Positions 11,149 to 56,695 of a stretch of 64,000 nucleotides of DNA are shown here, one piece after another. Made by a program: the position numbers and the translations under genes. Positions within the stretch are counted from its first letter, which is position 1. Each line of letters opens with the position of its first letter. The stretch comes from Naegleria gruberi (taxonomy: Eukaryota), in the NCBI GenBank assembly GCA_000004985.1, contig GG738905.1; one strand, 5' to 3'. Below the pieces are notes generated by a model, which saw only the letters and a list, made by a program, of their open reading frames with translations, did not search any database and was not told where the DNA came from.

Positions 11149-12828
11149 ATGACATCTTTTAATGATGTGGAGGATCAAGTTGTCATTTATTTAGATCATC
11201 AAAAAGATGGGAAAATTATCTACTCGGAAACAAATTCTCTTCTCAAGACGAAACTCTTAGCGGAATTAGTACAAAAACGAAACCATATTCAAGATTTGAA
11301 GGAATGTGTAAATTCTGGAGATAACAGTGTGAGAATGATCCTCCTTTCTCACTTTCCGATAATTGATAATCATGATCAAACCTACTTGTTGAATATTTTG
11401 GAGACTTTTAAGGAAGCATTTAAATTTGTTCCACAATCATTGAAGAATGATCGAAATTTTGTTCTGAAATGTTTGGAGGTGAATGGAGAATTATTTAAAG
11501 AGTATGAAATACTCGCGAATTATGTTTATACAGACGAGAGAACAGGGTTTTCATTTATTCGAAAAGCTTTTCAATTAGAAAGTGTCGTGAAACAGTTGGA
11601 TCCAAAGACAATTCTAAGTTTACCCTATAGTCCTTTACAGTATATCATTTCGAATAGAGAATTTTTTATGAAAGCAGTTTCAATCAATCCAACTATATTT
11701 TCATGTGCCTGTAGAACACTAAAGGCAGATGATGAGCTACTATTTGAAGCAGTGAAATATAATAGACAACATTTGAAATTTGCCTCTCTTAAACAGTTGG
11801 AAAATAGAAATTTAATATTTAGAGCTTGTGAAACCAAGGAAAGTAGTAAAATTGGATATTGGAGTTCAGTTTTGACGATTGCTTTGCCATTAGCCAAGTA
11901 TAATCCAGAATTAGCTTTGGAAATAGTGGAGAAAGACCATGAATCTGTTGCATGTGCAATCAAACATTTCAAAAATCACGAGAAAATAATAATGAAAGTA
12001 ATTGAGATAGCTCCATACTTGATATTCAAAGTTATCAAAAGGCAAGAATGGTTTCCAAATATGAAAGAAATTTGTCTATTAGCCCTAAAGAAAGATCCAT
12101 TGATCTACAAATACCTGGGGAGATTTAGATATGATAGGGACATTTTCAAGTTTGCTAGTGATTGTGGTCATATATCTATATCATACTTATATCTGTCACC
12201 TGAAATGCTAGGTGATAAGGTTTTCGCTGTTGGACTTGTAAGAAGTGTAAGTCCATTGTATTTTGAGAGACTTGATGAGAATCTGAAAAGGGATCGTGAT
12301 GTAATCCTAGCTCTTGCTGCACATTTACAAGTACTACAGCAAGAATTTAAAGAGAAGTATTTACCAAATTTAGAGAATGACAAAGAATTTTTATTAGAAG
12401 CAGTGAGAAGGAAGAGAAACGGCTTCTCTATTCTTTCATTCGCCTCAGATGAGTTGAAACAAGATAGAGAACTAATTCTTTCTGACATTAGAAAATGCAA
12501 CAATTTGAATCTAGTTCCTATCCATCTCAGATCAGATCGAGAAATAGTAGAAACTTTTATTAAGAATGTAAATTTATTTCTTTTTGATCCATCAAGTTTT
12601 CCTGATAGTCTATTGGAGGATAGTGAGTTTGTTTGGAGAATGATAGATTTGCGTCCTAATTTGATAAAAAAGTTTCCAAATCATGAATTTTTCAAAGAAA
12701 AGAAAATAATTCTCAAAATGATTTCTAAAAATATTCTCTGTAATGAAATTATTTCAAATGAACTTAGAGAGGACAGGGATATTAAATTGGCATTGATAAA
12801 AATAGGGAATTATCCATTCAAGGAATGA
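11149..12828 (+). CDS. DUF4116-type repeat protein
   Basis: About 10 degenerate repeats of roughly 35-40 aa match the DUF4116 pattern. Examples are LKNDRNFVLKCLEVNG, LKADDELLFEAVKYNRQHL, LKRDRDVILALAAH, LENDKEFLLEAVRRK, LKQDRELILSDI and LREDRDIKLALIKIG. Confidence 0.6.
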   Translation: MTSFNDVEDQVVIYLDHQKDGKIIYSETNSLLKTKLLAELVQKRNHIQDLKECVNSGDNSVRMILLSHFPIIDNHDQTYLLNILETFKEAFKFVPQSLKNDRNFVLKCLEVNGELFKEYEILANYVYTDERTGFSFIRKAFQLESVVKQLDPKTILSLPYSPLQYIISNREFFMKAVSINPTIFSCACRTLKADDELLFEAVKYNRQHLKFASLKQLENRNLIFRACETKESSKIGYWSSVLTIALPLAKYNPELALEIVEKDHESVACAIKHFKNHEKIIMKVIEIAPYLIFKVIKRQEWFPNMKEICLLALKKDPLIYKYLGRFRYDRDIFKFASDCGHISISYLYLSPEMLGDKVFAVGLVRSVSPLYFERLDENLKRDRDVILALAAHLQVLQQEFKEKYLPNLENDKEFLLEAVRRKRNGFSILSFASDELKQDRELILSDIRKCNNLNLVPIHLRSDREIVETFIKNVNLFLFDPSSFPDSLLEDSEFVWRMIDLRPNLIKKFPNHEFFKEKKIILKMISKNILCNEIISNELREDRDIKLALIKIGNYPFKE

Positions 12829-15053: not shown

Positions 15054-16757
15054 TTATTCTTGAACCTCAATTGTGATTGAGTTTGAATCCACAGCAGTTG
15101 GATCAGTGGTTGGCTTCTTTTTGTCTCCTTCTGCCAAGCATGGAACTCCATTTAACTCTTTTATCGATTGCTTGAATTTAGTCCAATTATTTTCGCAATA
15201 CACTAAACAATCCAAAACTCTATCATTGTGGAAAATGTCAATAAAGTGAGAAATCATAAGTTCACAAACAGAACTGAGGGCAGGTAAGTGTTGAGCCAAG
15301 AATTGTTGCTTTGAAACGTTGAGTGAACTTGGTGGATAGGCAAAGACAGGACCAAAAACAATAGCCAAATTGGTTTCCTTCATCATGTTAATGTGACTGA
15401 ATCTGGTAATTCTGTGCAACAAGCAACACATACATTGCAAAAGGAAGTAGTTATGTTCTGGAAGTTTGTGCATAATTTCTCTGAGGTGATCAATCTTTTC
15501 ATTCTTATCTGAAATTTTATCCAATTGAAGTACCGATGAGTAGAGAGCGTGTGGAATTGGTGGTTCTGGCAATTCTCTCAAAAACAGTTTTAATAAACCT
15601 CCAATTGTATGTTCATCTTCTCCTTCAGAAAATTGAATATCTTGATCTGGATTTTGATCGAATTGAATTTCATAAGCTCTCATACGATTCTTGTTACCAG
15701 GAACACGGAATAAACCTTCAGTTGTCAAATTATTTTGATAAAGTCTAGAAATACACTTGTAACAAATATCAGGTAAAACTCTTTCTGGATGTCTAGCATG
15801 TAAATCAACAAGTGGAACACCAAATGTGACTTTTCCTTGAGTTGACAAATCATAACGACATTCAACTCTCATATGAATTTTACCAGATGATTTTTCACCA
15901 ACAACAACTGGACGAAGAGGGAACCAATCTTCCTTATCTGCTCCAGCTCTAGCACTTTCAATTTTAACAACAACTTGTCCCATAATATCATCAGAGTGGA
16001 ATCTATCCTTATCAAACATGATCACATGCAAATCACAAGGTAATCTAGAAATTTCAAATTGGAATTCTTCACGCCATTTTGGCTCCAAAGTATTTTGTTC
16101 AACTTTTGTATGTTCAACTTTGTGTTCCATATTTAAAACAAGATAAGGATCTGCCAATCCTCCCATCAATGCAGTATCATGTTTTTCCAAATCCTTTGCC
16201 TCTCTAATTTTAACATAAACCTTAGCTTTCATTTGGAAAACTGTTGGTGCAGCCACTCTAATATCATCAGGAACCAATTTTCCAACAGTACTATGAGGAG
16301 CATCAGGATTATTACTCGAATCACTACTACTACCCGATTGTTGTTGTTGTTGATCCTCATTCCTAACATTCTTCTTACTAGTTGTTTTTTTCAAAATTGT
16401 CTCTCTAGCTTGTTCCATTGCTTGTTTCAAGGCTCGCAACCACAAATCCTTTTCATCCCAACTCTGGAATACAATCACATAGTGCGAAATATCAGACTCG
16501 AGGGTGATTTGATATTTTTTCTCATCATTCTTCGACTCGTCGATGAACTTGAGCCGAGGCTCTGTGGTGAGAATGTAGGCTTTGGCTTGTGTAGCCTCGA
16601 CGCGGTGCGGATCAAAGAAAAAGATTCCCTGCGTTGTGACAATGACCCAATTGATACGCCATGAAGGACGGAGGAGGTTTCTACCTTGGCTCTTGATGGT
16701 TTTTCTGTAGAGATAGCCTTGACGAACGGGTATGTCAATGTTATATCTTTGTTTCAA
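15054..16757 (-). CDS. PH - C2 - RhoGAP domain protein. The true start may lie upstream because the reading frame stays open 5' of the track start.
   Basis: The RhoGAP block GLFRVPGNKNRMRAYEIQFD includes the arginine finger. A C2-like block reads VYVKIREAKDLEKHDTALMGGLADPYLVL. The N-terminal PH-like segment reads QGYLYRKT...WRINWVIVTTQGIFFF. The track start is TTG. Confidence 0.75.
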   Translation of the reverse strand: MKQRYNIDIPVRQGYLYRKTIKSQGRNLLRPSWRINWVIVTTQGIFFFDPHRVEATQAKAYILTTEPRLKFIDESKNDEKKYQITLESDISHYVIVFQSWDEKDLWLRALKQAMEQARETILKKTTSKKNVRNEDQQQQQSGSSSDSSNNPDAPHSTVGKLVPDDIRVAAPTVFQMKAKVYVKIREAKDLEKHDTALMGGLADPYLVLNMEHKVEHTKVEQNTLEPKWREEFQFEISRLPCDLHVIMFDKDRFHSDDIMGQVVVKIESARAGADKEDWFPLRPVVVGEKSSGKIHMRVECRYDLSTQGKVTFGVPLVDLHARHPERVLPDICYKCISRLYQNNLTTEGLFRVPGNKNRMRAYEIQFDQNPDQDIQFSEGEDEHTIGGLLKLFLRELPEPPIPHALYSSVLQLDKISDKNEKIDHLREIMHKLPEHNYFLLQCMCCLLHRITRFSHINMMKETNLAIVFGPVFAYPPSSLNVSKQQFLAQHLPALSSVCELMISHFIDIFHNDRVLDCLVYCENNWTKFKQSIKELNGVPCLAEGDKKKPTTDPTAVDSNSITIEVQE

Positions 16758-22243: not shown

Positions 22244-22594
22244 TTATTCATCTGGTTGAGGTTTTGATAAATCCAAGCCTGGACATACTATCTGATCCCT
22301 TCTCACAATATTCTCTCGTAACATATATTGTACCACATTCATTCTTTGATCTCCCTGGAGAGTAATGATTTTTCCCCTCTCTTCATCATCAACAACTATT
22401 GCACTGCATTCAAATAGTGATGAGAGGGTTTTAGTTAAGGTTTTGAGTGGAATGTTTTGTGATAATCCCTCAATGGTGGTAATTTTCTTATTGTTGGACC
22501 GGGAAAAGATTCGGACGTGTATTTTGGAAATTTCTGGTTCTTCTTCTTGGAAGGGATCGTTCGATAGGAAATCAGTGTTGCATGGTTTTGACAT
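22244..22594 (-). CDS. Translation initiation factor eIF1 (SUI1 family)
   Basis: The start is A-rich. DPFQEEE...ISKIHVRIFSRSNNKKITTIEGLSQ...ITLQGDQR aligns to eIF1 DPFAD...IHIRIQQRNGRKTLTTVQGI...IQLQGDQR. Confidence 0.75.
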   Translation of the reverse strand: MSKPCNTDFLSNDPFQEEEPEISKIHVRIFSRSNNKKITTIEGLSQNIPLKTLTKTLSSLFECSAIVVDDEERGKIITLQGDQRMNVVQYMLRENIVRRDQIVCPGLDLSKPQPDE

Positions 22595-23010
22595 TTTTTT
22601 TAAATTGCAAAATTGAATAGAAATCAACTGCAAAATTGAATTTTTTGGTGCCTTATTATTCAAAAATAAAATATAAATTTAAAAAATTGTCATCATGGTT
22701 ACATGTATTCGGATGGATTGTTATTCTTCTCGTCTTAACTTTTGGTGTTGAAGGAGTGGAGCATATGAGAGTTTGAAAATGTTGTAATACGATGGATAGA
22801 TTTTTTAAAATAATAATTGAATCAAGTGTTGTTATGTATTAACATAGATTGTTAATAAGTGCTTATAGATTAATTTAAGAAATGTCATCCTTATTTAGAA
22901 TAATACAACAATTCAACACGATATGAGTCAATAATGGCGTCTGTGTTTGTACTGGAAGTGGCGTTTCTTGACACAGTTCTTCGTATTGCTATTGAGTAAC
23001 CAAGTAAAAA

Positions 23011-26000
23011 ATGTCTAGTTTATGGCCTTCATTGGTGTTGCTGGTTATGTGTTTGATTTCTCTCGTTAGTGTTACTACTTTACATGCACAAGTGAACACA
23101 AAACCAGTTGACTACTCAATTACCACAATTATTGGTACTTCTGGAGATGGAGCAAAGGCACTCAATGTTGGTATTTATGATGGAAGAGGATTGGTTGCAG
23201 ATAATAGAAATGGTAACATTTACTATGCAGATGGATTGAATTCTCAAGTAAGATATTTTGACACTAATGGAATATCACATCTCTTTGCTGGTTCTCCTGC
23301 CTATCAATATGGATCTCCTTCTGATAGTTTAGGTTTTGCCAATGATTCACTGAGTCTTCCATATGGAGCCGCTTTAAATTCAAAGGGAGATGTTTTCATT
23401 GTAGATAGTAGTCAAAATAGAGTGAAGAAGGTATTTTACAATTCAACTATCAATGCATTCAACATGATTACTGTTGCTGGCGGTGGTTCATCATTGGCAA
23501 GTGGCATTCCTGCTCTCTCAGCAACATTTACTGCCCCAAGATGTATTGCTGTTTCACCTGATGATGAAGTTTATGTTTGTGATGCTTTTAATTACTTGAT
23601 CAAAAAGATTGTAAACGATACTATTTACAATGTGATTGGAACTGGCATCAAAGGAAATAGCGTTGATGGAACTCTTGCAAATAATACAAAGATTAGCAGT
23701 CCTAGTAGCATTGCTTTCCATCCAATAACTAAAGAACTATTCTATTCTGACCTACTCGCCAATGTCATTCGCTACATTGCTAGAAATGGATCAGTATATA
23801 CATACGCTTCAATAACTAGTCCTAGGACAATTGTTTTCAATTCAAATGGCGACATGTATGTCAGTATTTCAACAGCCAATCAGATCATCAAAGTTGTGAA
23901 CGGTATAGCAACTGTGATTGCTAATAGTTTGTCTACAAACGGATTCAGTGGTGATGGTGGTAATGCTATAAGCGCTTCATTGAGTTTTCCATTTGGCTTA
24001 GCTATTTATAATAACAGTTTATATATTTCAGATTCTTCGAACTATAGAATTAGAAAAATAGATTTGACCTCTAACATTATTAGCACTGTTGCTGGTGATG
24101 GTTCTAAACAATATTCTGCCAGGTATCCTGGTTATATCTTAGACGTTCCACTCGCCAGTCCACTATCAACATTTTACAATTCACAAACAGATGAATTATT
24201 AATGGTAGATAATAACAGAGTATTGAGACTCAATTCTTTAACAAACTACAAAAATTCTCTAATTGAAAGTATTGCTGGAAATGGGGTGTTAGCTGTAGAT
24301 GTTGATGGTAAATTGGGAAATCAAACTTCTCTCAATTCTGCATGTTCAGTCTTCCAGTCTGAAGCAACAGGAGATATTTATATTGGCACAGTAGGATCAG
24401 TACTAAAACTATCTAAGAGCAATCAATTGGTTTCAACCATTGCTGGAACAATTTCAAAATACACAGGAGATGGTTCCTCTGCAATTCAAGCCCAATTAAA
24501 TGGACCCACTGGTGTTGCCATATCACCAAATGGAGAAGTTTACATATCTGATTCAAGTAATGATGTTATTAGAAAGATTGATACAAATGGTGCTATCTCA
24601 ACTGTTGTTGGATCTAGCTCAGGATTCTTGGATGCATCAGCTCGTAGAGCACAACTTGCAAATCCTATGGGTATTGCTTTTCTGCCTAATGGTGACTTGA
24701 TTATTTCTGATGCTAAGAATAATAGAATTAGAAAATTCAGTATCAGCTCAGGAAATGTTACAACAATTGCTGGAACTGGTTTAACCACGTACAATGGGGA
24801 AGGCCTTGTTGGAGTTGCAACAAATATCAATTACCCTACTGGTATTTGTGTTAACAGTAGTAATTCAGAAATTTTCTTTGCAGGTTTGTTTTACTATTCG
24901 ATTATTTTAACACTTTTTCACAGATACCTTCAATTACAGAATTAGAAAAATAGATTCGACAGGAACTATAAGAACAGTAGTAGGAACAGGTTCCTCATCA
25001 TACACTGCAGATGGACAAAATGGAACATCAACTTCTGTTTCAGCTGTTGGCTTACAGATACATCCAATTACAAGAGAATTGTATTATAGTGATGGAGCTT
25101 TTATTAGAAGAGTTGATTCTAAAGATGGCAAAATCTATACAGTCATTGGTGGTGGAAATACTTATTCAGCACTCAGTTTAGCCAACTCTACATACTTGGG
25201 TATTGTTCGTAATTTTACATTCTCCCCAAATGGAGATATTTATGTGAGCTGTCCTTCTTTTAACGTTATCAAAAAGATGGACTATGGCTCCAACATTGTG
25301 TATAATGTGGTTGGAACTGGTAGTACGGTTCTAACTGGAGATGGACCTGCCTTATCAACTTATTTGTCAAATCCTGGTGGATTGGCTGTAAACACTAATG
25401 GTGAATTGATTTTTGCAGCATCTTCAGGATTATCAAATTATGATGGAATTAAAAAACTTTCTGGTGGAATGGTAGCAACAATAGCAGGTGGAATTGGAGA
25501 TGGTGGACTTGCAATCAGAGCAAACATTGGAAAGGTTTCAGCAATATCAGTTACTGACACTGATATTTATCTTTCAGATCAAGGCAATAACAGAATTAGG
25601 AAGATTTCATTATCGACTGGTATCATTTCTTCAGTTGTTGGTGCTTTTTACAGTACTGATAATGGTGATAATTTGGCTAATCAAACCAACATTAATTTAG
25701 TCAATGATGTGAGAATTAGTACTGGTGAAATAGTATTCACTGATTCTGGACATAATAAGATCAGAAAGACAGATCTGTCCGGAAGAGGTAAAGTGATTAC
25801 AATTGCAGGAAATGGAAGCAGTCAAGCAATAGTTTCAGAAAACGTATTGGCAAGTGAAGCGTATTTGAATAATCCTGGATCAATTGGTTATTTATCAACT
25901 GGTGAACTGATTATTACCGATACTGGAAATAATGTTATTAGAAAGGTTGGTTTGAATGGAAATATTTCATTGATTGCAGGTCAATATTTCCAAAGTGGAT

Positions 26001-27535
26001 TCAATGGAGATTCATCAAATGCCAAGAGTTCATTGTTGAGCAATCCAAAGGGTCTTTCAATTTTGAACGATGGAAGAATTGTATTTGTTGATAGTGGCAA
26101 TTTCAGAGTTCGAATGCTCACACCATATTGTCCACAAGGATACTACTTGACCCAAAACTCCAATGGTCTTGTTTGTAACTTTCTAACCTGTTTTGGAATT
26201 GCAAGCAATGATTCGAAAGTTTGCTCAGGAAATGGCGTTTGCCAATCGTTAGACTCGTGTTTATGTTCAAATGGATATAGTGGTGTCAATTGTAACCTTG
26301 CACCTTGTTTTGGAATTGCCTCTAATATTCCACAAGTATGTTCTGGAAGGGGAGTTTGTCAATCATTGAATAATTGTTCATGTTCAATGGGTTACTATGG
26401 TGTGAATTGCGAATTAAAAGCAGATAACCCTACGATTAATGTGACAACATGCTATGGAATTGATTTCAATAATTCAAACGTTTGTTCAGGAAGAGGAATT
26501 TGCCAATCATTGAATAATTGTTCGTGTTTCACAGGATATTCGGGTTTGAATTGTTCTGGCGTGGTTTCAGATAACTCCAATACGTCTCCAAATTCATCAA
26601 ATTTGACAACTTGTTTTGGCATTGCATTCAATGATTCTACTGTTTGTTCAGGAAGGGGAATTTGCCAATTATTGAATAACTGTTCGTGTTTTTCTGGTTA
26701 TTCAGGATTAAATTGCTCCAAAGATAGTACAAAGAATGATGATAATTCAAATGCAGATTACTGCACTCTGTATCCAAACTCGTATGTTTGCTCTCCTCTC
26801 TCATCCTTTAACACAACCGAAACTCAGATTACCAAAGTTTCAAATATTACTCAATTAGATTCAAAGACCATCCAATTTGCCTCAACTTCAACAATTTCCA
26901 TTTCTTTGCCATCAATCATTTCACAATATCTTCAAAATACTGACACATCACTCAAGAATGATTCAGTTCAAGTTGTCTCCTCAATTGCCGAAAGTAAGAA
27001 TTCAAATAGTGATGCAGCTGTCATTTCATCCATTGTTTCTTTGGTTTTATTGAAATCAAGTTCAAGTGAAAAGATTACAGTTCAAAATCTTGAACAACCA
27101 ATTTCACTATCGTTTGAGAATGTTACTCTAACAGTTTCAAGTATTGATACTTTGAATATTTCATGTGTTTATTATGAGGAGAATTCTAAAGAATGGAAAT
27201 CAGACGGAATGGAAACTGAGATTAAAAATTTAGAAATTCACAACCTTGCAGATGGAAATATCACATTAACACTCTCCATCCTATGTAACACCAATCACTT
27301 GACTTCATTTTCTGTAATTGACCAAAATTACAAGAAGGCAGCCACCAAACCAACACCTCAACCTGCTCAATCAAATCAACCAACCAAGGATGCTGAAATA
27401 CTTCAAGATAATACTGTTTTAATTGGAGCTATTGTAGGCGCAGTTGGAGGAGTATGTGTAATTGCAGTTGTCATCTCAATAATTATTATTGTTGTTTGTT
27501 TATTAAGAAAGAGGAAGAAAGAGGAAATAAATTAA
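23011..27535 (+). CDS. Large type-I membrane protein with a signal peptide, about 12 NHL repeats, five tandem EGF/tenascin-type Cys-rich units, a Ser/Thr-rich stalk, a TM helix and a short basic tail. Exons are 23011..24883 and 24924..27535.
   Basis: NHL motifs include IYYADGLNSQVRYFD, FIVDSSQNRVKKV, YISDSSNYRIRKIDL and YLSDQGNNRIRKI. The EGF units read TCFGIASNDSKVCSGNGVCQSLDSCLCSNGYSGVNCN, five times. The C-terminal TM reads IGAIVGAVGGVCVIAVVISIIIIVVCLLRKRKKEE. A 40-nt GTTTGT...CACAG intron joins the ORFs in phase 1. Confidence 0.75.
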
Positions 27536-27622: not shown

Positions 27623-28678
27623 ATGCAAATCTACAACTGCACAACTTCTCATACTGATGATTCACTATTATTACAAATGCACGATGATCAAGATCGGCCT
27701 AATACTGTGCTAATGTTATGTGATATACAACCTCATGATAGAGAACATTTACTTCATAAAGAATTAACCCTCAAATTTAAACAAGCCTCCGATCGTGTTA
27801 TTTTGATTACTAATTCTGTGGAAAGATTTAAAAAACATAGAAAGATTGATGAGAGATTGGTTAGGGACTTGGAATTTGCTTTTAGAGTGGTACAAATTGA
27901 AGGAACAGCACTAAGAAAATTGAGAAATCAAAATAGAAGAGTGGCACTAGCAGCTGTTCAGCAAAATGGAAATGCCTATTCCTATATTAAAGGTCCTTTT
28001 CAGAGGGATTTGGAATGTGTGATGAGTGCTGCTTTAACATGTGGTAATAATATTGCCATGAGAATATTGAATCAGGATACATTATCAGATGAAGAAAGAA
28101 TGGGAGTGATGAAACGATTATTAGATAATAGTAGAGTGAATGTAGTTAGGCTATTTCGATGCATGCCCTCTAGTTGCTTTACAAGCTTGAATTTTTGCAT
28201 AGAATTGCTTCCTAAAGTTAAGAATCATTTGTATGATGTAATGTTTGCTTCATTTTGCAGTGATAGAGACGCCTTATTACAACTATTAAGAAATTGTCAG
28301 ACATTTGATCATGGATTTCCAAATTTTGTGGGTAAAGGGTTATGGGATAAAGAATTGGTTTTAGAGATGGTATCTAGGGACGGTATTTCAATTGAACATA
28401 TACCACGTAACTTACAAGCTGACAGGGATATTATTCTGACAGCTGTGAAAAACGACGGAAGAGCATTGATGTTTGCACATCCTCCACATAATTCTGACTT
28501 TGAAATCGTTACAGAAGCTGTCAAGAGTAATGCAAGAGGGTTTTTTTATGTTGATAATGAATTAAAGTCATCCAAGAAGTTTATTGATATGTGTATGAGA
28601 GAAAATCAAGAAGGATTTAGTTATTTGAGACAATACGATCATGAGGTAGAGAGCGGTTTAAGAAAGTTTGGTTACTAA
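27623..28678 (+). CDS. DUF4116-type repeat protein (second copy of the family)
   Basis: The start is A-rich. Repeats include LRNQNRRVALAAVQQNGNAYSYI, LQADRDIILTAVKNDGRALMFA and DFEIVTEAVKSNARGFFYVDNELKSSKKFIDMCM. Confidence 0.6.
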   Translation: MQIYNCTTSHTDDSLLLQMHDDQDRPNTVLMLCDIQPHDREHLLHKELTLKFKQASDRVILITNSVERFKKHRKIDERLVRDLEFAFRVVQIEGTALRKLRNQNRRVALAAVQQNGNAYSYIKGPFQRDLECVMSAALTCGNNIAMRILNQDTLSDEERMGVMKRLLDNSRVNVVRLFRCMPSSCFTSLNFCIELLPKVKNHLYDVMFASFCSDRDALLQLLRNCQTFDHGFPNFVGKGLWDKELVLEMVSRDGISIEHIPRNLQADRDIILTAVKNDGRALMFAHPPHNSDFEIVTEAVKSNARGFFYVDNELKSSKKFIDMCMRENQEGFSYLRQYDHEVESGLRKFGY

Positions 28679-37239: not shown

Positions 37240-39631
37240 AGCGTAAGTTTGGATTCACTTTGTTGACATTAAGATGTTAATTTTCGAAAATTCAGATGGT
37301 GAAATTGTTGAGTGCTACTCTTTAGAACCATTCATTGAGGGAGAATATCAAAAATATTTTAGTAATAGTGGAGAAGTGCCATGTATTGCGGCAGCCATCC
37401 AGTCTCCAGAAGTAATGGCATTATTCCAGACCTCCCAAACGTTCTCCCATTGGACATATGAAATAACCAAACAAAATTTAATAGTTACAGATATTCAGGG
37501 TGTGAAATATAGAATGACAGATCCAGCAATTTCCTCAGTAGGTCAATTATATGGAGAAACAGACACTGGTGAGGAAGGATTTAAAGACTTTTTTGAAGCT
37601 CACTATTGTAATGAACTTTGTTTAAAACTTGGATTGAAACATCCAAACGGTGATTTGTACATGGAACATCCATCTCTTCCAAAAACAATTTCAAACACAA
37701 TTGACCATGTAGACTTCTGTTCAGGATACTGTTGTGGAAACTATATTGAATACAAGATTGGTGAGAAAACACCAGATGGCACGCTTTTTTGCAACAAATG
37801 TAACCAGCGTAATAGTATAACTGAAAAGAAAGTTTGTAAAAAGAAAGGATGTTCCCTTAAATTTGAAATTGAAAGATGGTATTGGGTATCAACTGGAAAA
37901 CATCCACCAACCAAATGTCATCTACACAGAGGAACTATAGCATCTGAATTAAGGGATTGGAAGAAAAACAAAACCCTACCAAATGGAGCTCTCTTCACTC
38001 AAGAAGAAATGCAAAATCAATTAGATAAGGATCCAGATTTGAAAAAGCAATTTGAGAAGAGTATCATCCAAGAAAAGAAACCAGATTTATTTAATACTGT
38101 TGTTATTTCAAATCTCCCTGCTAGAACAAATTCCATGGATATCTTTAATATGCTTCCCCCTTTCTTCACTAATAGAAATCAGAAAGTGAAAGTCACTGAA
38201 CTTGAAGTGCCTTCAACCTTCAGCATTGAGTTTGAGAATGAACCAATTGCGTTAGAGGCATATCAAATTCTTGGATCATACATCCATAGAAGAAGATTAA
38301 TTGTTTGTAGACCTCTACAACACAAACATGAATCAGTGAAACTGGATAAAAGCTCCATCAATATTCAGTTGTCAAAGTATCCAAATGTTAAATGCAGTGA
38401 TATTTTACAATATTTCAAGGATTCGAATTACAAAATTCAAGACAAGTACTATGAGGAAAACAAGTTTGCAAATTTCACATTCTCTGATCCCTCAATAGCA
38501 CCAACCTTGGTCTCAAAAGGTTTATCTATTGATGGCACACTTGTTAAAGTTGTTTATAAGAAGGAGAAGCCAATTACTAAACAAGATGTACCACTAAAGA
38601 ATTTTAAGGAAAAGAAAATAGAAATTGATGAAAACGTTGACAAGACATCTGTACACATCAAATGGAGACCTAAAAATCCATCCGAATCTGTTCAGTTGCA
38701 AGAGATTGATCTTTTAAAACTTTTGAACCAATCTGACATTTTTAAGAAGAAATTCAATTCTGCTAAATCATTTATGCAAATTACTTTCAAATCAGAACAA
38801 TCTGCAGCATTATTGATTAAAAATGGTTTAAAGTTGCCAAACTTCAAGTTTACAATCAATTTCAAGAAGATACAAGAAAATGAAAGGAGCAATGATTGTA
38901 ATGAAAAACGAGTACAAAGTGAGGCCAAATCCAAAAAAGAAAAGCAATATCCAAAGGTTGTGGCAAACTCGCTTACTCCAACATCTGATTCAACTACCAA
39001 AAATCTTAAAAGCAATATTTCAACATCTAACAATCAATCACCCAAGCAACAAAATATTTCTAAAATGCAAAATTTGATGTTTGTTTTTGATATTAACACA
39101 CTTTTGAAAATTGGTAATTTACGTAATTTACTAGGACAATTTCTAGAAAACCACATCCAGTTTTGTGTTCCAGATATTAAATTGGACGAAATGAACGAAG
39201 ACACGTTTGCGGTTCAAAATTTAGTAGATGAATTCAAAGAAATCAATGTACAAGTTCCTGATGAATCAAATAATCTCACTTTAAGAACTCTTAAAGTAAC
39301 CAAAAAGGTGTCTGACAATTATCCAAATAGGAATGTTATGCTTGTGACAGATGATAAAGAATTGAAAGCTAACGCAGATAAATTCAGATTGAATGTTATC
39401 AATAGCTCAGCAATGAATCAATTAATTAGACAGTCAAGCGTAAATAATTCAGTACCAAAGCCAATACCATCAATTTCCAATCCATCACAAAAATCTACAA
39501 CTATTCCAACAACTAATACTGTTGAAACAATTATCATAGAACCATCTAATCAAAGAACAACCAACACACCTGTACCTGTTCCTGTTTTGCAAAGTATGAC
39601 CAAACTGATTAGTCATGGAAAGAGAAAATGA
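37240..39631 (+). CDS. Alpha-kinase (C-terminal half of the catalytic domain) - Cys/His-rich cluster - long Lys-rich linker - C-terminal PIN-like domain. The 5' end is lost in the gap.
   Basis: The frame is open from the gap. LEPFIEGEYQKYFSNSG ... TDIQGVKYRMTDPAI ... GETDTGEEGFKDFFEAHYCNELCLKL matches the alpha-kinase (eEF2K/MHCK) C-lobe, including DxQG, TDP and the Gly-rich and HxCN motifs. The Cys/His cluster is CSGYCCGN...CNKCNQ...CKKKGC...CHLH. The C-terminal FVFDINTLLK...CVPDIKLDEM...VMLVTDDKELKANA is PIN-like. Confidence 0.7.
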
Positions 39632-39772: not shown

Positions 39773-42700
39773 CTAATGGAGAGAAATGATAGCTTGTTTT
39801 TCCACATGTTGAGCACTTGAAGACATTCTCAAATTATCTAAACTCATTCTCAATGCAGAATCTCCTCCTCTAAAAACCTCCAAAGTTCCCTCCCTTAAAT
39901 CATCTTCCTTATTTGGTTCGTGAATGTATGTTTTCATTTGACCTTTTCCTTTCACTTCGACATATCGTTCTTGGAATTCGTGTTTATCTTTGAGTCGTTG
40001 ATAGCATGTTTCGGTTACTTGAATGAATCCTGCAGGGCATGTACTTTCCATTCTTGAAGCAGTCTTTGATAATGTTATTTAAATTGTAAAGTGTGAAAAA
40101 TAAACTTACATTCACAGCATCAGACCAGACATCGTAGGCATATTTCAATACTCCACAAACTCCTGCAACTATTGGTCCAGAGTTAATGCCAACTCTTATT
40201 CCAATATTCAATCCATGATCCTCACAAAACAATTGAACTACTTCTGACAACTTGACAGCAAATGTGAAAGTTCTTTCCACATGATGAGCTTCATTCATAC
40301 CATCAGGTTTCAATCCAGCAGTACAGAAATACTTGGATCCAATTGTCTTTATCTTTTCCAAATTGAAATTGATGGTCAAGTCATCAAATTCATGAATAAT
40401 TTCATTCAAAGTTTGAACCAAATCAAAAGCAGATAAATTCAAATCCAATAATCCAACAATATCACTAAACAAAATGGTTACATCATCGAACTTGTCAGCA
40501 ATCAGAGTTTCTCCTGCAATCAGACGTTGAGCTACACTCTCTGGCATGATATTCATCAAGAGAGATTCGCTTTTTTTCTTTTCCTCAGCTAGTTCCTTAA
40601 CTTGTACTTTGTGTTCTGAAATATCACGCATGAAACATGAAATGATGTTTCGTCCTTCTAGTGCCGAAACTGAAATTCTCAATTCAACTGGGAATGATGA
40701 AGAATTCTTTCTTAAACCATTTAGTTCAAGAGTTTCAGAATAGCTTGTGGCAGAAACTCCCATTTTGGAAATGACTGGTTCTAGATTGGCAGCTGATTCC
40801 TTGTCAAATAATTTGTGGAGTGGAAATCCAATAATTTGATCTCCTCTGAATCCAAATAACTTTTCAGAAGCATTGTTGAAAATGTCAATTGTGCCACTTG
40901 ATGAGCAAATGACAGCACTCGTTAAGGCAGCTTCTAGAATGGCTCTTTCTTTTGTCGTTTTGAATTTGTTTTTCGATCTGGACTTTCCATTAGATAAGAG
41001 ATGGAAGAAGATATAGTTTCGAATATCGTCATTGGTATCCAATATTTCCCATGGAATGTAATTGAACAATTTTCTGAGAACATAATTTTCATTCTCAATG
41101 GTAGAGGTATACGTGTAGGTAATCCATGTCAGAAATAGCAATAATGGACAACCTAGGACAGCTGACAGTATTGTCATCAATGGTTGTTCTTGGAAAAAGT
41201 TGTAATAACAGAGTTTGTTTAAGGTTTCCAAATTGGTGAGTAGTACTATGGAATGATCAAAGAGAAATTCTGCCAATTCATTGATTTGTTTCATTTCTAG
41301 AGAGATAGTTTCGTTTGAGATTAGTAATTGATTGAAATTCAAAATGCTAGTTCTGAACTGCCCTATTTGGGTATCCAAAGATTGACAATCAAAATGAGAA
41401 CAATTAGTTGGCAATGTCAATAATAAATTGTCGATATTCGGATTGAATCCACTCAAACTAAAGTAATCATCAATTTGAGAACCATATCTCAACATATTCC
41501 AGTTTCTGTCAAATAAACTCATATCTGCCAATAATCTGTCATGAAATTTAACTCTCTTCTCATAATCTGCAATTGAAGCTACTTGAAGAAGATCATATCT
41601 TAAACTCTGAGATATATGCATTGATTGTGCTGTAGATTCCAACTTGTAAAGTCCATGTTCCAATATTTTCAATTTTCTGAAAATATCAGCAACGATCAAA
41701 GACATGGTTGCTGTGGCCACAATGAAGGACAAACAAACAACAATTACCAAAAAACTATTGGATGAGATACTATCCTTTGTGGAGTCTACATTCGTACCAT
41801 CCTTATCAATCAATCTCTCCATTCCAATAATGACCTTCTTGGATTCGTCTTTTGGAATTTTCTTAAACAAGTTTAGGATTTGTTTTCTCTGGTGAAGGAA
41901 TTTAAAACTACAAAAACCATTGAAAATCAAATATAGAAAGAAAATTAATCCAATAAATGATGATAAGGCAATGTAAGCATATGAATAGTTCCTTAATTCG
42001 CCTTGTTGGAATTGAAGAGTTTTTTGGAAGAAATCTAACATTCCATCTGAGAATGCTACTCGATTCATTTCAATGAAATTCAATAATTCTTGACTGATCT
42101 TCAAGTTGGATGTGTTTGTGGAAATAATTGTTTCAGATAGAACTCGTTTCGTCTTTTTCACAAACCATGAAGTTGAGGAATTTTTGTAAACTTGATTATC
42201 AAGAAGGAGAGTCTTGTCTTGTTTAGTATACAATAAGGAAACCAATTCATTGAATGAGAAGGAATCGAATAGAGTTTCGAACGAGTCAATCTTTGCAAGG
42301 TCGTTTTCCAGAACGTTCTGAAATGATTTTCTATACTCTAAAGATGAGCTATAATTCAAAGTTGACATTGCTCCAATATTTCCATTCACATTCGAAACTC
42401 CACAAAGTGTAGAAGTCGGAATTGAACTCAACATGGCAGATTTCAACAAAATATCGAATACACTATCATTCTGTGTAAATGAAAGTCCAACAATTAACAA
42501 AATTGCAATCAACACAATCGAAACCAAACCAGAGCTCACAATAAAATAAAACGTCGTTCTATTCTCATCCTTCTTATGAAGTGCCGAGCTGAAAACTTCT
42601 TGTTGCTTATCAGCTTGATCCATCAACTCTTCTGGTTGTTGTTCACTTACAGAGATGGAATCAAAGGCCTCATCATTGACATTCTCACTGAACATGTCGA

Positions 42701-44705
42701 CTCTCATGCCGTTGTTGTTATTGCTGCTACTACTTGTGTAGCTCTTTGTTATGATGAGTTCTCCGTGTGTTTTATCTGATCTTTCATTATCTGAGTTGTT
42801 GTTATTGGATGAAGAATGTTGTGAGGATGGTTTGAATTTGAATTCTTCCTGATATTGAGCGAACATTTTCTGAATGGCATGATCTTCCTCATTGTCTATA
42901 AGGAGATTGTGGAAAGCTAGGTCGCATTCATTGGATAATCTTTGAATTTGTTGAACAATAGTGTCAACAGCAACAGAGGCCAATAAATTCTTCCAAAATT
43001 GGACAATTAGTAATCTAAGCATTTTGATTCTACGCTTCGTTCCCTCCATAATGATATCAGAGGCTCCCGAAGATGAAGTTCTCCCTTCAGATAAATTCTT
43101 TTCCAACTCTTTTGTTCGAATATAGAGAGAATATTGAATGAAAATGTTGGCTCTCTTTTTCTCTGCCTTCTTAATCACTATTAAGGCAAGAAAGAAGTTT
43201 GGTATTTCCTTGTAGAACATGGAAATGAGAATTAAACTCTGAGCATCATGGACTTCTGATTTGTGAACGATTCTAATGGCATCATTTGCTAATTTCTTAT
43301 CCTCATCCGATCCTTTCAATGAAAATTTAATAAAAGTTGACAAGTAAGGCAACTCTCTCTGTGTTAACAGGACATCAGATCCACAATTTACAATTGCCTT
43401 AGCGAGATGCGACCCCCTCCTCTTCACAGACTTGGAATAGAATTCCAATATCAGAAATCCAATCACGAAAAAGATGATTCCCAAAACAAGAGGTGAAAAA
43501 GTCAATCCCAATCCAAATTCCCACATGTCATCCACGTTGATGAGAGTACTCACGAGTGAGGCAATTCCTACTCCAACTCGAGCAAATCCAATTCCACCAT
43601 AAACTGCATTGGCTTTCCTCCTCAAGAATGGTAAATCGACAAACATCAAGACAATAAATCCAATAGAAAGAACAATATAATAGACAGGTCTCAGGAAATT
43701 GACTATATGAGGAGTCACTCCTGCCACAATCAAGTACAATTGATTCGTTCCAATCAGATAGCTCATCACGAATGGATTCTCCAAAACAAATTTGGCCTTA
43801 CTCGCCACCATCGTATCACAAAATATCATGACCGCGCTCATAGTGATCAGAATTTGAATGATACAGAACAGTAAACTGATACTAGCCAATATACCATTCA
43901 TCGTGCCCCAGCATTCCACATTTCTGAAATTCCTCAATGCAAATGAAGGTGGAGCTCCCTGAACAATAGAAACCTTACTAGTAAAATCACAATCAAAGAA
44001 ACCTTGCATGAGACCATAGGTTATTGGCAGAGAGAGGAAGGTCATTAGGAAGAAGACAAATCTACCTCCAGTTCTGATCTTTTTCCAATAAGAGCTACCC
44101 AGAATGATGGATCGGTAGGTAATGTAAATAATCAGAAAGCAAATTGACTGCATCACAAAGACAATCACTGCCAATGCAATAAATCCTTCATAGGGCAAGT
44201 ATTGAAATCCCAATGTTCTTGGTATGAGTAATATGTTATAAATGTATCTGCCATATTCACCCCAATTATAATCGATGGCCACTCCTAGTGAAAGCGTCTG
44301 ATAGGCAATCAGCATGTGTATCGAGAGACACATGAGTGGATGCAATGGTTTTTCCAATTTGAGTGATTGAACAAACATGAATAGTTTCCTAGTGATGGCT
44401 CCTTGATTGTCTGTTTGTGAAGGTTGTGAATTCACACCAGACAGTTCATCAGAAATTACATTAAAGTAACCACCTCCTCCTGCTGTTGTTTTTGTTATTG
44501 CTGCTGCTTGATTCCCTGAAGCATTATTAAGACTACTAGTACTTCCATTGATGGGAAGGATTGAGTTGGAGCTGGGAGCTTCGGAGAGTCTGTTAGTCGA
44601 TCGTCTGGAGAGAAAATTCGACCTCGTCTTGAGATTCCTTCCACTATTACTAGTATGAAGTGTATTGTTATTGTTATTATTTGAATTTGAATTTGATTTA
44701 TCCAT
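39773..44705 (-). CDS. Polytopic membrane protein with a PAS domain and a single C-terminal class III nucleotidyl cyclase homology domain. Exons are 44705..40110 and 40063..39773.
   Basis: The N-terminus is Asn-rich, followed by at least 8 TM helices, a roughly 300-aa loop and more TM helices. The PAS domain reads ILEAALTSAVICSSSGTIDIFNNASEKLFGFRGDQIIGFPL...FPVELRISV...CFMRDISEHK. The cyclase block reads FSDIVGL...EKIKTIGSKYFC...GIRVGINSGPIVAGVCG...YDVWSDAVN|TASRMEST. A 47-nt GTAAGT...CAAAG intron is present. Confidence 0.8.
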
Positions 44706-52705: not shown

Positions 52706-55700
52706 ATGGACTCACACAATATCAGAGTTTTTCAATCACAAGATATTTTGTGCCCACACGATCTCGGACAGCCCTACTGCAGTGCTGCGAGTGATAGTTT
52801 ATTCTGGGTCGCATACAATGGAATTGTCAAAGGCTACTCGACACAAACAACACAGAAAGAGTTTCATTGCCTTTATGAATTTCAGCCTTTGTGGAATCAA
52901 GTGGATGCTATTCATTATTTGCCAGATATTAGGAGAGTAATTACGGTGGAAAGGAGAGTTTTATATTCATCATCTTCATCATCATTGAATGGAGGAGCAA
53001 CAATAACATCCTCTCCGATGAATAATAGTTTAAATGTTTTGGCAACATCATCAAATTTGACGGATTTTAAATCAAATCTCACGAGTGTTAATAATAATAA
53101 CAGTCAGGGAACAAATGGTGGAGTGAGTGTGGAGCAATGTTGTAGAGTTTATCATTTTGATTATGATAAGAAGGAGAGAAAGACAATAATTACACCTTCT
53201 ACATTACCGATTCAACATTTTACGACATTTGCTAGTGGAGATTCTTTAAATAGTGAATTGCTTATTTCTGTCTGTACATATAGTAATCAACTGTTGACTT
53301 GTGTGAAGGATGTTATTTCATTGTGGAAATTTACAAATCATGATACATCTGTTTGTGTGTTAAAACTTCACACTTCTTGGAATGTCAAGTGTATTTCTGT
53401 TTTTAACCAATTTATTGGGTACGGAACAACAAAAGATGTCCGTGTTGTGGAATTAAAATTAAAAGACAGTCAAAAGTTTGAATTTGTGGAGAATATTCAA
53501 GAGGATGACCTCATGGAAGAAGCTGAATTACAAAACAATGCAGAAATTCTCAACACTAAAAATCTATCACTATTGGATATTCAAAAGAAAATTCAATCAA
53601 GAATTCAGGATCAATTTATTGGACCAACTATTGAAACTCAATCCACACCAACCAGTACTTCCATTCTACAAAGGCAAAGAAATGGATCTGGTCCCCTCAC
53701 AAACAAGACAATGGCCATGTATTGGGGTAAAAGTCAATTGGAATCTAGTGACGAAATACAAATTCGTCTCGATATGGCAACCAAAGAATTACTTCCTTCT
53801 CCAGCCACTCAGAAATACAGTGAGGCTGTAGCAATAACACCTGAGGATAGAAAGAAGAAAAAGACTGCCATTACATTTTCAACTAATATTGCCTATGATA
53901 TTGTTGGAGAAACCACAACAGTCGATCACCCAGCTTTTGTAAATACTCACTACATGTAAGTTATCAATATTATTGACCTATGAATTTGTTTATTCATTAA
54001 TAATTACAGTGAGGCTTGTACCAATTTACTTCACAAACATTTCACCGATGAGGAAAGTCCAAGATCTATTCACTTTCTTCAAAACATTGCTCAAAAGAGA
54101 GACTTTAATCAAAATACAGGCATGAAATGTATTTTGAGTACTTCAACTTGTGGTTATGTTTATGGATTATCGAGTCCTCAACAATTACTTTGCGAATTTG
54201 AATATACAGGAGAATGCTTAATGAGTGCTGTCAATTCATTGTTCCTTTATGCTATTACACCAGTAGGATTGGAAATTTGGTCAGTTCTTGGCAGTAATAA
54301 TGGTTGCCTTCTCAGGTTCCATCCTTTCATTGGTCTCAAGAACGTCTCTGCCACAGACAAGCATGTCATTCTTCTCTCCAAGATGAGCAGCAACGAGAAT
54401 GTTTCCATTGCTGCCTATTATAACCAACAGACAGAGAAGACTGTTCTCGTGTCTGACATGAGAAGCATTGAGAAAGTCAGTAGAGCTTCAACAGCCAAAG
54501 AGGGTTCAAGAAGTGGCTCACTCCTACCAATTTTCAGTGCAAGAAGAAAAAAGGAAGAACCAAAATCCACAGCCCAACCAGTTGTTGAAGAATTTTCCTA
54601 TAACATTTATGCCCTGAACTCGGTAGAATTATGTGAAATTTATGAAGACATGCTCGAACATGCCATAATGTACAAGACCCAAGATAATGCCAAGTATATG
54701 AAACTTTTGAAGGAATCTCACAGCTTATTGCAATCAAAATATTTTGAACTTTTAGCAAAGGAAAAGAAATTGGATAGACCAGAGACAGATCCGGTCATTA
54801 TTTTAAAAACAAGAGTGGACTTGCAAAACTATACTACATTATTGAAGAGATCATTCGGATTAATAGGTGATACCTATGTTTCTGCTGGACAAATCGATAA
54901 GGCAGCCTATGCTTATTCGAATAGTGACAGACCAATCGATAATGTCTTTGAGAATTTGTCTGTTAGAGAAGAATCTCTTCTTCTCTTCCTGGATCATGTT
55001 CTCTTTGATAATGACATTAGCAATATGGAGAAGGTTTGCTCAGAAGAATTGGGTGATAAAATACTCTCCATTTACAGGCAAAGAACGCCACACAGATTGT
55101 CCAATGTCATCTTATCTGGTAGTATTAACTTTTCCAAGAGTCATGCCATCTCACTATTGCATGAAATCAGTGAAGAATATATCAAGGCTCAACAGACTGT
55201 TTCTCAACTTGAAATGAGTCAAGGAGAGCAAAACTGCATTGGAGAACAATCTTGGTTTGATATCATGCCTAAAGATGCAATTGTTCTTTCATTGATGCAA
55301 TTGAACAATGGAGAAGCTGAGCAAGCTATTACAATTTTAAGGTCTGTGGAAGGCAACTGTTTGGTTGACTTTTTGATCAATTATCCAAACTTGTTAACTT
55401 CACCAAGCGAGCCATTCTCCTTGTTTGCAAAAACTATTAGAGAATATGCTCCATGGTGTTTATTGGAAGCCCTTGTACGTTTGACCTCTGCTAATTGTTG
55501 TCCATTAGAAACTCAACACGTTCTCAATTTGCTGAAGGGAGAAGAAATCAAATTTACAGCTGAAGAACTTCCAATTACACCTCTTGTGATGCAACAAATC
55601 TACTTGTCCTCACTACTTATTGCTGGCGATTATACAAATGAGAAAATACTAATTGATAATGCTCTCCTATTACTCAAAGTATTCATATCGGAATTGGAAC

Positions 55701-56695
55701 AAGTAACTCTAACATTGAAGCAATCTGACATTGAGTTATTGGTCAAGTGTGTTAAGAGTAAGGTGGATTTGATTAATTCTTTGAATTCTCCTCAACCTTT
55801 CATGTCTCCTTCAGATATTTCATCAAATGAAGATATTATAGGTCAAGAGTTTGCTCCCCTCATCTCAAACCTTTCACAACTTCAAGATTTGAAGCAATAT
55901 TGTTCCTTCCTCCACTATTCATTTATTCCTTTCCGTGAAAATCTCAAATGGCCAAAAGAATTTGTAAATTATGAGTTTGAAAAGAATAGAGACTCGTTTG
56001 GAAATGTAAACTCTAAAACCCTCTCAGAAAAGTACAACGATGTTAATAGTATTTTAGAGAGCATTTCAATGGCAGATGCTACCCTCTTTTCTCTTACAGA
56101 GAATGACCCATTCCTTTTAATGATTCACTTGTTGTACAGTGCCCAAGGTTTGATTTGCTTCTTTGTTCAACTTCTTTCAGGAAATGGCGATCTTTTCCAA
56201 GAATTTATCAAGATTATTGAATCTTCCAACGCTCATTCTACAGTTGGTTTTGAGACTTTGAAAATTTTGTGTATGACTGGTTCAAAACAACTCAAGGAAG
56301 GCATTGAAAGATTATTTGAAATTCTTGGACAAGTGAATGAAGACAATGAAAATTTCAAATCTAAAATGGATGTTCTCTATGGATTCATTCAGGAACACTG
56401 CAAGAATGTTGAGGAATGGAAGTGTGTTCTCCAGTTAATCTTTGAATACATTCAACAAGTCGAATCAGTCAATACCCAAGATTCCAAGCCTGCCATCTGT
56501 CCTAAATTCCTCTACAATTTACTAGATCGTGTGTTGAGAAATTTGGCACTTACCAACACTCCTGAGGAATTCCTCACTCTAATCCCAAAGAATGGCAGTA
56601 TGAAATTCTTCTTTACCTACATTCAATTGTGTTATTCACATTTCACAATGAATATTACCAACAATACCAATCTCCTTAATTTTGAAATTTTGTAA
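52706..56695 (+). CDS. Large protein of about 1,310 aa, likely beta-rich at the N-terminus and alpha-solenoid at the C-terminus. Function unknown. Exons are 52706..53955 and 54010..56695.
   Basis: The start is A-rich. The two long ORFs are joined by a 54-nt GTAAGT...TTACAG intron with the correct phase. No diagnostic motif was recognised. Confidence 0.55.

Follow-up and report, generated by a model that had tools for sequence, protein, structure and literature searches.

What kind of surface protein does a free-living amoeboflagellate build when NHL repeats and EGF units are set ahead of a single membrane anchor, and what lies between this ectodomain and the membrane? The question is raised by NAEGRDRAFT_73525, a single + strand gene at positions 23011-27535 of a 64,000-nucleotide (nt) stretch of the Naegleria gruberi genome (contig GG738905.1, assembly GCA_000004985.1), which is referred to here as the window. 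The gene is real, already annotated and uncharacterised: its spliced product of 1494 amino acids (aa) is identical to EFC38696.1 (XP_002671440.1, UniProt D2VWW2; exact look-up, 290,827-bp contig), whose public annotation is "predicted protein". Autoproteolysis of the GAIN domain at its GPS motif (G-protein-coupled receptor, or GPCR, proteolysis site) is a defining feature of adhesion GPCRs (aGPCRs) and polycystin-1. A preliminary description of the locus had placed a Ser/Thr-rich stalk next to the membrane. We find in its place a folded GAIN/GPS domain, probably the self-cleaving module of animal aGPCRs. This module, overlooked in the earlier description, is the most informative feature of the protein and, together with its family context, is what is new here; the individual gene is an ordinary member of a sequenced, automatically annotated family.

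The domain beside the membrane

Serine and threonine make up 28% of aa 1223-1455 versus 21% of the whole protein, and these values, together with the predicted fold, rule out a mucin-like stalk. What remains as linker is a P/T/Q/K-rich stretch of just 28 residues before the transmembrane (TM) helix (aa 1428-1455; 27332..27415, +), poorly conserved across the family. The preceding aa 1253-1427 (26807..27331, +) are predicted to form a beta-sandwich like that of GAIN subdomain B and carry a GPS motif. The region between the fourth EGF unit and the TM helix closes with ...SILCNTNHLTSFSVID, a sequence similar to GPCR proteolysis sites. The tripeptide H1416-L1417-T1418 (27296..27304, +) conforms to the pattern H-[LMI]-[TS] with the break before its last residue, and autoproteolysis is predicted between L1417 and T1418; the stretch spanning these two residues reads ...LCNTNHLTSFSVIDQNYK. 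An AlphaFold2 model of aa 1223-1438 is a beta-sandwich with the fold of GAIN subdomain B, with a predicted local distance difference test score (pLDDT) of about 75-88 in its core and a predicted template modelling score (pTM) of 0.68. In this model the tripeptide occupies the turn between strands 182-192 and 197-202 (model numbering), which are the last two. Solved GAIN domains reportedly have their GPS in the corresponding turn.

Homology searches placed the region in a wider family. The C-terminus of an N. lovaniensis protein is 35% identical to it (E 8e-28), and the region annotated by Pfam as GPS in the N. gruberi paralogue P0004 is weakly homologous and aligns in register. In the alignment P, C, W, G, C, H, T and F are invariant; used in an exhaustive HMMER search, it recovered 3141 relatives among 1.84 billion representatives. 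Word-index searches with the 272-aa C-terminus and with the alignment gave no matches. Searches of this type miss relatives: the word-index protein search also missed the query's own cluster and EFC47550, a 52-67% identical paralogue, both of which were recovered by exhaustive HMMER and exact look-up, and its negatives are therefore not evidence of absence. A profile of 17 single-pass homologues, from which seven-transmembrane (7TM) paralogues were excluded, had nine matches in the PDB at E<=1, and all nine were aGPCR GAIN domains. The alignment to the best of them, ADGRG6 (9.9e-5), extends across 135 profile positions, among them P..F, C, W..DG and C..HLT.F. With 7TM paralogues included, a five-sequence profile reached E 2e-9.

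Single-pass and 7TM-RGS classes of one Naegleria family

The best 150 of the 3141 relatives were compared by what follows the GPS. A 7TM class, defined by at least six TM segments after the GPS, comprised 59 sequences, with CxC in 54 and H-T-T in 46. A single-pass class, whose members have a single TM segment and then a short tail, comprised 34 sequences, with H-L-T in 27 and CxT in 23. The 7TM-class proteins examined are Naegleria NHL-EGF-GPS-7TM-RGS proteins, and the single-pass proteins looked up belong to N. gruberi and N. lovaniensis. Naegleria thus has a multigene family in which an NHL-EGF-GAIN ectodomain is carried either by a single-TM anchor (HLT, two Cys) or by a 7TM-RGS body (mostly HTT, four Cys). 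NAEGRDRAFT_73525 is a member of the single-pass NHL-EGF-GAIN-B group, a variant of GAIN surface proteins in which the GPS has one disulfide and subdomain A is lacking.

Single-pass paralogues in N. gruberi (EFC47550, EFC47942, EFC45308, EFC37791, EFC36400, EFC45632) and N. lovaniensis (KAG2381920, KAG2373593, KAG2373542) share its architecture, a GPS signature with two Cys (C.Y...W..DG...C.T.HLTSF.VID.N.KK), a single TM helix and a tail that is short and basic, vary in length and in the number of EGF units, and are uncharacterised; UniProt already gives the three N. lovaniensis proteins the name "GAIN-B domain-containing protein". EFC47550, the closest, shows 52% identity in the propellers and 67% in the C-terminal region, and has one EGF unit versus four. 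Eleven positions are invariant in 23 of 23 single-pass members (L1347, I1351, C1372, W1382, C1412, T1414, H1416, L1417, T1418, F1420 and D1424); linker, TM helix and tail are unconserved among them. The paired loss of GPS cysteines, with M and T in their places, is common to the subfamily. A literature search found no publication on this single-pass NHL-EGF-GAIN-B family and none pairing Naegleria with "GAIN domain", and queries combining Naegleria with NHL/EGF or teneurin returned irrelevant matches only.

The GPS-bearing 7TM-RGS receptors (N. gruberi P0004, P0072 and P0054; N. fowleri Nf 7TM RGS1-4) have homologous NHL arrays, EGF units and GAIN/GPS regions, followed by seven TM helices and a cytoplasmic RGS domain, and their four-Cys GPS mostly reads H-T-T or H-A-T, not H-L-T. 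Unlike them, NAEGRDRAFT_73525 ends after one TM helix and nine residues, and Pfam detected no RGS domain in it. The possibility that this helix is TM1 of a 7TM-RGS gene with missed downstream exons was considered and ruled out: an in-frame stop codon follows, the next open reading frame (ORF) encodes a DUF4116 protein, and the annotated protein and 22 homologues terminate alike.

Taken as a whole, we consider it probable, with moderate confidence, that the protein is a type-I single-pass glycoprotein whose ectodomain, serving in adhesion or recognition, is released by self-cleavage but stays tethered non-covalently. The main rival explanation treats the GAIN-B domain as a non-cleaving structural spacer in a covalently intact, membrane-anchored receptor or adhesin, which we regard as possible but not likely; aGPCRs whose GAIN domain stays uncleaved are well known. 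Several observations weigh against self-cleavage, or against the calls it builds on. The only GPS cysteines are C1372 and C1412, GC being changed to GM and CxC to CxT, so that the second canonical disulfide is absent. For the helical subdomain A no helix bundle was predicted, and about 30 low-confidence residues connect the fourth EGF unit to the sandwich; either the missing disulfide or the missing subdomain could abolish cleavage. The Pfam GPS model (PF01825) scored 19.2 bits on the isolated C-terminal 271 aa (E 0.0018), below its gathering threshold of 22.5, and was not reported on the full-length protein. A phmmer search of the PDB with the single juxtamembrane sequence found no GAIN domain, only spurious low-complexity matches. 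The AlphaFold2 model has a mean pLDDT of 69, a moderate confidence, was built from a shallow alignment of five sequences that included GPS-bearing paralogues, and gave nothing significant in Foldseek; leader and TM helix were called from hydropathy alone. Finally, H-T-T is strongly conserved in the 7TM class, so that conservation of the tripeptide by itself is no proof of catalysis and may reflect folding.

The incomplete disulfide set and missing subdomain A, the sub-threshold Pfam score and the H-T-T of the 7TM class, a tripeptide conserved without the canonical residues, all speak for a spacer. In the same direction, Drosophila Remo is inferred not to be self-cleavable, its site being an irregular H-R-T, and the review that reports this also describes aGPCRs in which subdomain A is shortened (PMC13197933). 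Against a spacer, H-L-T and the following S-F-x-V-I-D strand are invariant in all 23 single-pass members, and HLT has been kept selectively in these proteins and not in their 7TM paralogues.

If the domain does cleave itself, it would do so at L1417-T1418 in the secretory pathway, and the mature form would be a non-covalent pair of an extracellular fragment of ~1390 aa and a stub of 77 aa in the membrane; the first strand of the stub, TSFSVID, would remain buried in the sandwich. The head of ~1000 residues, with its 18 NHL blades, would be the ligand-binding part and the four EGF modules a spacer. Particles, prey, the substratum or a cell-surface ligand could be bound by the propellers, and mechanical load could detach the head from the stub, which could act as a breakaway tether or a shedding switch. 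Since there are nine cytoplasmic residues and no signalling domain, the protein would not signal by itself. Alternatively, or in addition, it may cooperate with paralogous 7TM-RGS receptors of like ectodomain. An adhesion or recognition molecule, as proposed in the preliminary description, remains the most reasonable functional class, without the kin-recognition rationale that was attached to it.

A further explanation, compatible with self-cleavage but in our view rather doubtful, is that the protein, itself unable to signal, is a partner or decoy of the NHL-EGF-GPS-7TM-RGS receptors, sharing or competing for their ligands or pairing through ectodomains. The very short tail suits this role, and P0004, a GPS-7TM-RGS protein of the same genome with 44% identity over the propellers, is the closest full-length relative among the matches listed. 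There is a precedent in Drosophila, where the 7TM form of Cirl is paired with an isoform that has one TM segment (PMC13197933). N. fowleri has 28 7TM-RGS proteins, and those with GPS and EGF ectodomains were described as adhesion-GPCR-like (Bosch et al. 2022, PMC9283941). The single-pass members, however, form a conserved subfamily of their own with a distinct GPS signature, suggesting an autonomous role.

Two other observations concern GPS-bearing relatives. Eight metagenomic proteins (P0194, P0196, P0205, P0222, P0224, P0229, P0253 and P0266, from JGI, Logan, NCBI and ENA) have a GPS without the second disulfide and follow the pattern DG[not C] ... C.[TS].HL[TS], and some of them then carry 4-6 TM segments; the one-disulfide variant may not be confined to Naegleria. 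In N. lovaniensis, P0060 (2537 aa) has an NHL array, over 10 EGF units, a REJ domain (PF02010), one TM helix and a short tail, together with a degenerate GPS-like C.C site that lacks HLT, an architecture like that of sea-urchin REJ proteins and polycystins in a heterolobosean.

Ectodomain, topology and gene model

Both repeat types of the ectodomain scored above their Pfam thresholds in the HMMER check that had been proposed for them. For NHL, PF01436 matched with 4.9e-40 (134 bits, cut-off 20) and TEN_NHL (PF25021) with 5.9e-43 (147.6 bits, cut-off 27.1); TEN_NHL is also given for 120 of 120 proteins among the matches listed, most of them from bacterial genomes or metagenomes. A hidden Markov model (HMM) built from ten clear blades of the protein itself detected 17 blades within aa 40-1029, and the gap in the array at aa 361-418 corresponds to a degenerate blade, for a total of 18 (23128..26137, +, spanning the intron). 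The blades are of the four-stranded type that closes into six-bladed propellers. At least 12 NHL repeats in two six-bladed propellers had been expected; the NHL assignment was correct, but 18 blades most likely form three closed propellers, which on the + strand would comprise blades 1-6 (23128-24081), 7-12 (24091-25135) and 13-18 (25175-26137). That these propellers are catalytic, of the SMP-30/gluconolactonase/strictosidine-synthase type, and the protein a membrane-tethered ecto-enzyme, we regard as very improbable.

The propellers are followed by four tandem six-Cys EGF units (aa 1047-1081, 1086-1120, 1134-1168 and 1188-1222; 26189..26716, +), rather than the five counted previously. EGF_2 (1.6e-17, 64 bits, cut-off 22.1) and EGF_Teneurin (8.1e-17, 61.4 bits, cut-off 24.3) each matched four stretches, Cys spacing agrees, and the underlying DNA consists of four 119-nt units, three copies being 66-82% identical to the reference copy. 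These units were found by a repeat search; they are too diverged for Tandem Repeats Finder, which reported no repeats. Extra Cys pairs flank the EGF block, C1027-C1042 before it and C1238-C1247 after it.

Only two hydrophobic segments were found by hydropathy, aa 1-~26 and aa 1456-1485, consistent with the signal peptide and TM helix of the preliminary description. The first is a probable signal peptide (aa 1-26; 23011..23088, +; hydropathy peak at aa 1-28), MSSLWPSLVLLVMCLISLVSVTTLHA followed by Q, and the small residues near A26 (...SVTTLHA, then Q) suggest that cleavage probably occurs after A26. The TM helix (27416..27505, +; hydropathy maximum 3.4) is followed by the cytoplasmic tail RKRKKEEIN of 9 aa (27506..27532, +); tails across the family are short, basic and unconserved. 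All 33 N-x-S/T sequons lie N-terminal of the TM helix. Together with the leader and the one C-terminal TM helix, this fits a type-I, single-pass, heavily glycosylatable surface protein.

Two + strand ORFs, 23011-24945 and 25079-27535, join into one gene once a 40-nt intron is removed. Exon 1 (23011..24883, +) contains codons 1-624 and the first base of codon 625; the GT..AG intron (24884..24923, +, phase 1), the only one of the gene, lies inside blade 11, and exon 2 (24924..27535, +) includes the stop codon at 27533-27535. Removal of the intron brings back the frame and the canonical blade motif FFADTFNYRIRKID, and the annotated protein has the identical splice. The gene was at one point suspected to be unannotated, as the first homology search listed no self match, which the exact match to EFC38696.1 ruled out. 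P0277 (644 aa), from an ENA assembly, is a gene call in prokaryote style that runs through the 40-nt intron to a stop codon.

Neighbouring ORFs are functionally unlinked to the gene, as is usual at eukaryotic loci. DUF4116-repeat proteins are encoded at 27623-28678 (+), beginning 88 bp past the stop codon of NAEGRDRAFT_73525, and at 11149-12828 (+). In an intronless 1573-aa ORF at 39984-44705 (-), a PAS domain precedes a C-terminal adenylate/guanylate cyclase catalytic domain, and there is no Pfam match in the N-terminal ~1250 aa. The other features are a PH-C2-RhoGAP protein (15054-16757, -), SUI1/eIF1 (22244-22663, -), an alpha-kinase (37274-39631, +), an HPS3-like protein (54122-56695, +) and an ABC1 atypical kinase (58324-60483, +).

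Comparison with known systems

In the earlier view of the locus, its product was a teneurin/tenascin-like molecule with which a social amoeba would achieve cell-cell adhesion or recognise kin, with the ectodomain logic of teneurins inverted. As regards family membership and organism this view is largely refuted, and we consider it unlikely. N. gruberi is a free-living heterolobosean amoeboflagellate, neither amoebozoan nor social, and the kin-recognition argument therefore falls; two other ORFs of the window are exact N. gruberi proteins from the same contig. Kin-recognition loci had been expected to be hypervariable, and two near-identical copies give no sign of this: an ENA-derived ORF has 1 substitution in 624 coding residues, and EFC35540.1, a partial N. 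gruberi entry on a 4-kb contig, differs at 4 of 224, with none of the differences in the GPS.

The likeness to teneurins is real at the level of single domains. Teneurins are also membrane proteins whose ectodomain has tenascin-type EGF units and an NHL propeller, and the teneurin-derived Pfam models match, but the domains that define teneurins or tenascins are missing. Pfam gave no match at E<=1 for Ten_N, YD/RHS or the toxin-type Tox-GHH/ABD, nor for the tenascin hallmarks FN3 and fibrinogen. In teneurins, which are type II proteins, the N-terminal domain is cytoplasmic, and the further parts are 8 EGF units, a single propeller, a TTR/FN-plug, a YD shell and Tox-GHH. NAEGRDRAFT_73525 appears as type I, with blades for three propellers and a GAIN-B domain, and the parts peculiar to teneurins were undetected by Pfam. 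Judged by its domains, it is neither a teneurin nor a tenascin.

Compared with the GAIN domains of aGPCRs (ADGRG6, ADGRG1, ADGRG3, ADGRL3, BAI3, CELSR1 and CD97), the one described here occurs without a 7TM region and without subdomain A, and has one of the two GPS disulfides; an ectodomain with 18 NHL blades is absent from the aGPCRs described in the reviews consulted. In aGPCRs the 7TM region comes right after GAIN, whereas here a single hydrophobic segment follows the GPS and the stop codon comes 9 codons later. The protein is therefore not an aGPCR. A GPS/GAIN region beside the membrane in a non-7TM context is shared with polycystin-1, PKDREJ, sea-urchin REJ proteins and the single-TM isoform of Drosophila Cirl, and suREJ1 is reportedly a single-pass protein with EGF modules. 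With one TM helix and no Pfam match to REJ, PLAT or C-type lectin domains, NAEGRDRAFT_73525 is not a polycystin/REJ protein either.

We tentatively propose that the NHL-EGF-GAIN cassette is interchangeable between a single-TM anchor (HLT competent for cleavage before T, one disulfide) and 7TM-RGS bodies and, if self-cleaving, forms a stand-alone, force-sensitive breakaway tether. If true, GAIN would have a mechanical role far outside Holozoa, in a discoban protist, independent of tethered-agonist activation of a GPCR. Naegleria, in a distant part of the eukaryotic tree, would then offer a simple natural system for GAIN cleavage without a GPCR to activate, in which possible roles of cleavage include shedding, a mechanical fuse and pairing of co-receptors. 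The family also provides candidate surface molecules for adhesion or prey recognition in a genus to which the pathogen N. fowleri belongs. According to a 2025 eLife analysis (PMC12716839), the linkage of GAIN to 7TM and elaborate GAIN-containing ectodomains are restricted to Holozoa, and a stem-holozoan origin was proposed. The Naegleria 7TM-RGS paralogues appear to be either an exception to this restriction or a case of convergence; on the reading tentatively proposed here, the linkage of GAIN to a 7TM region would be older than, or convergent with, that stem-holozoan origin.

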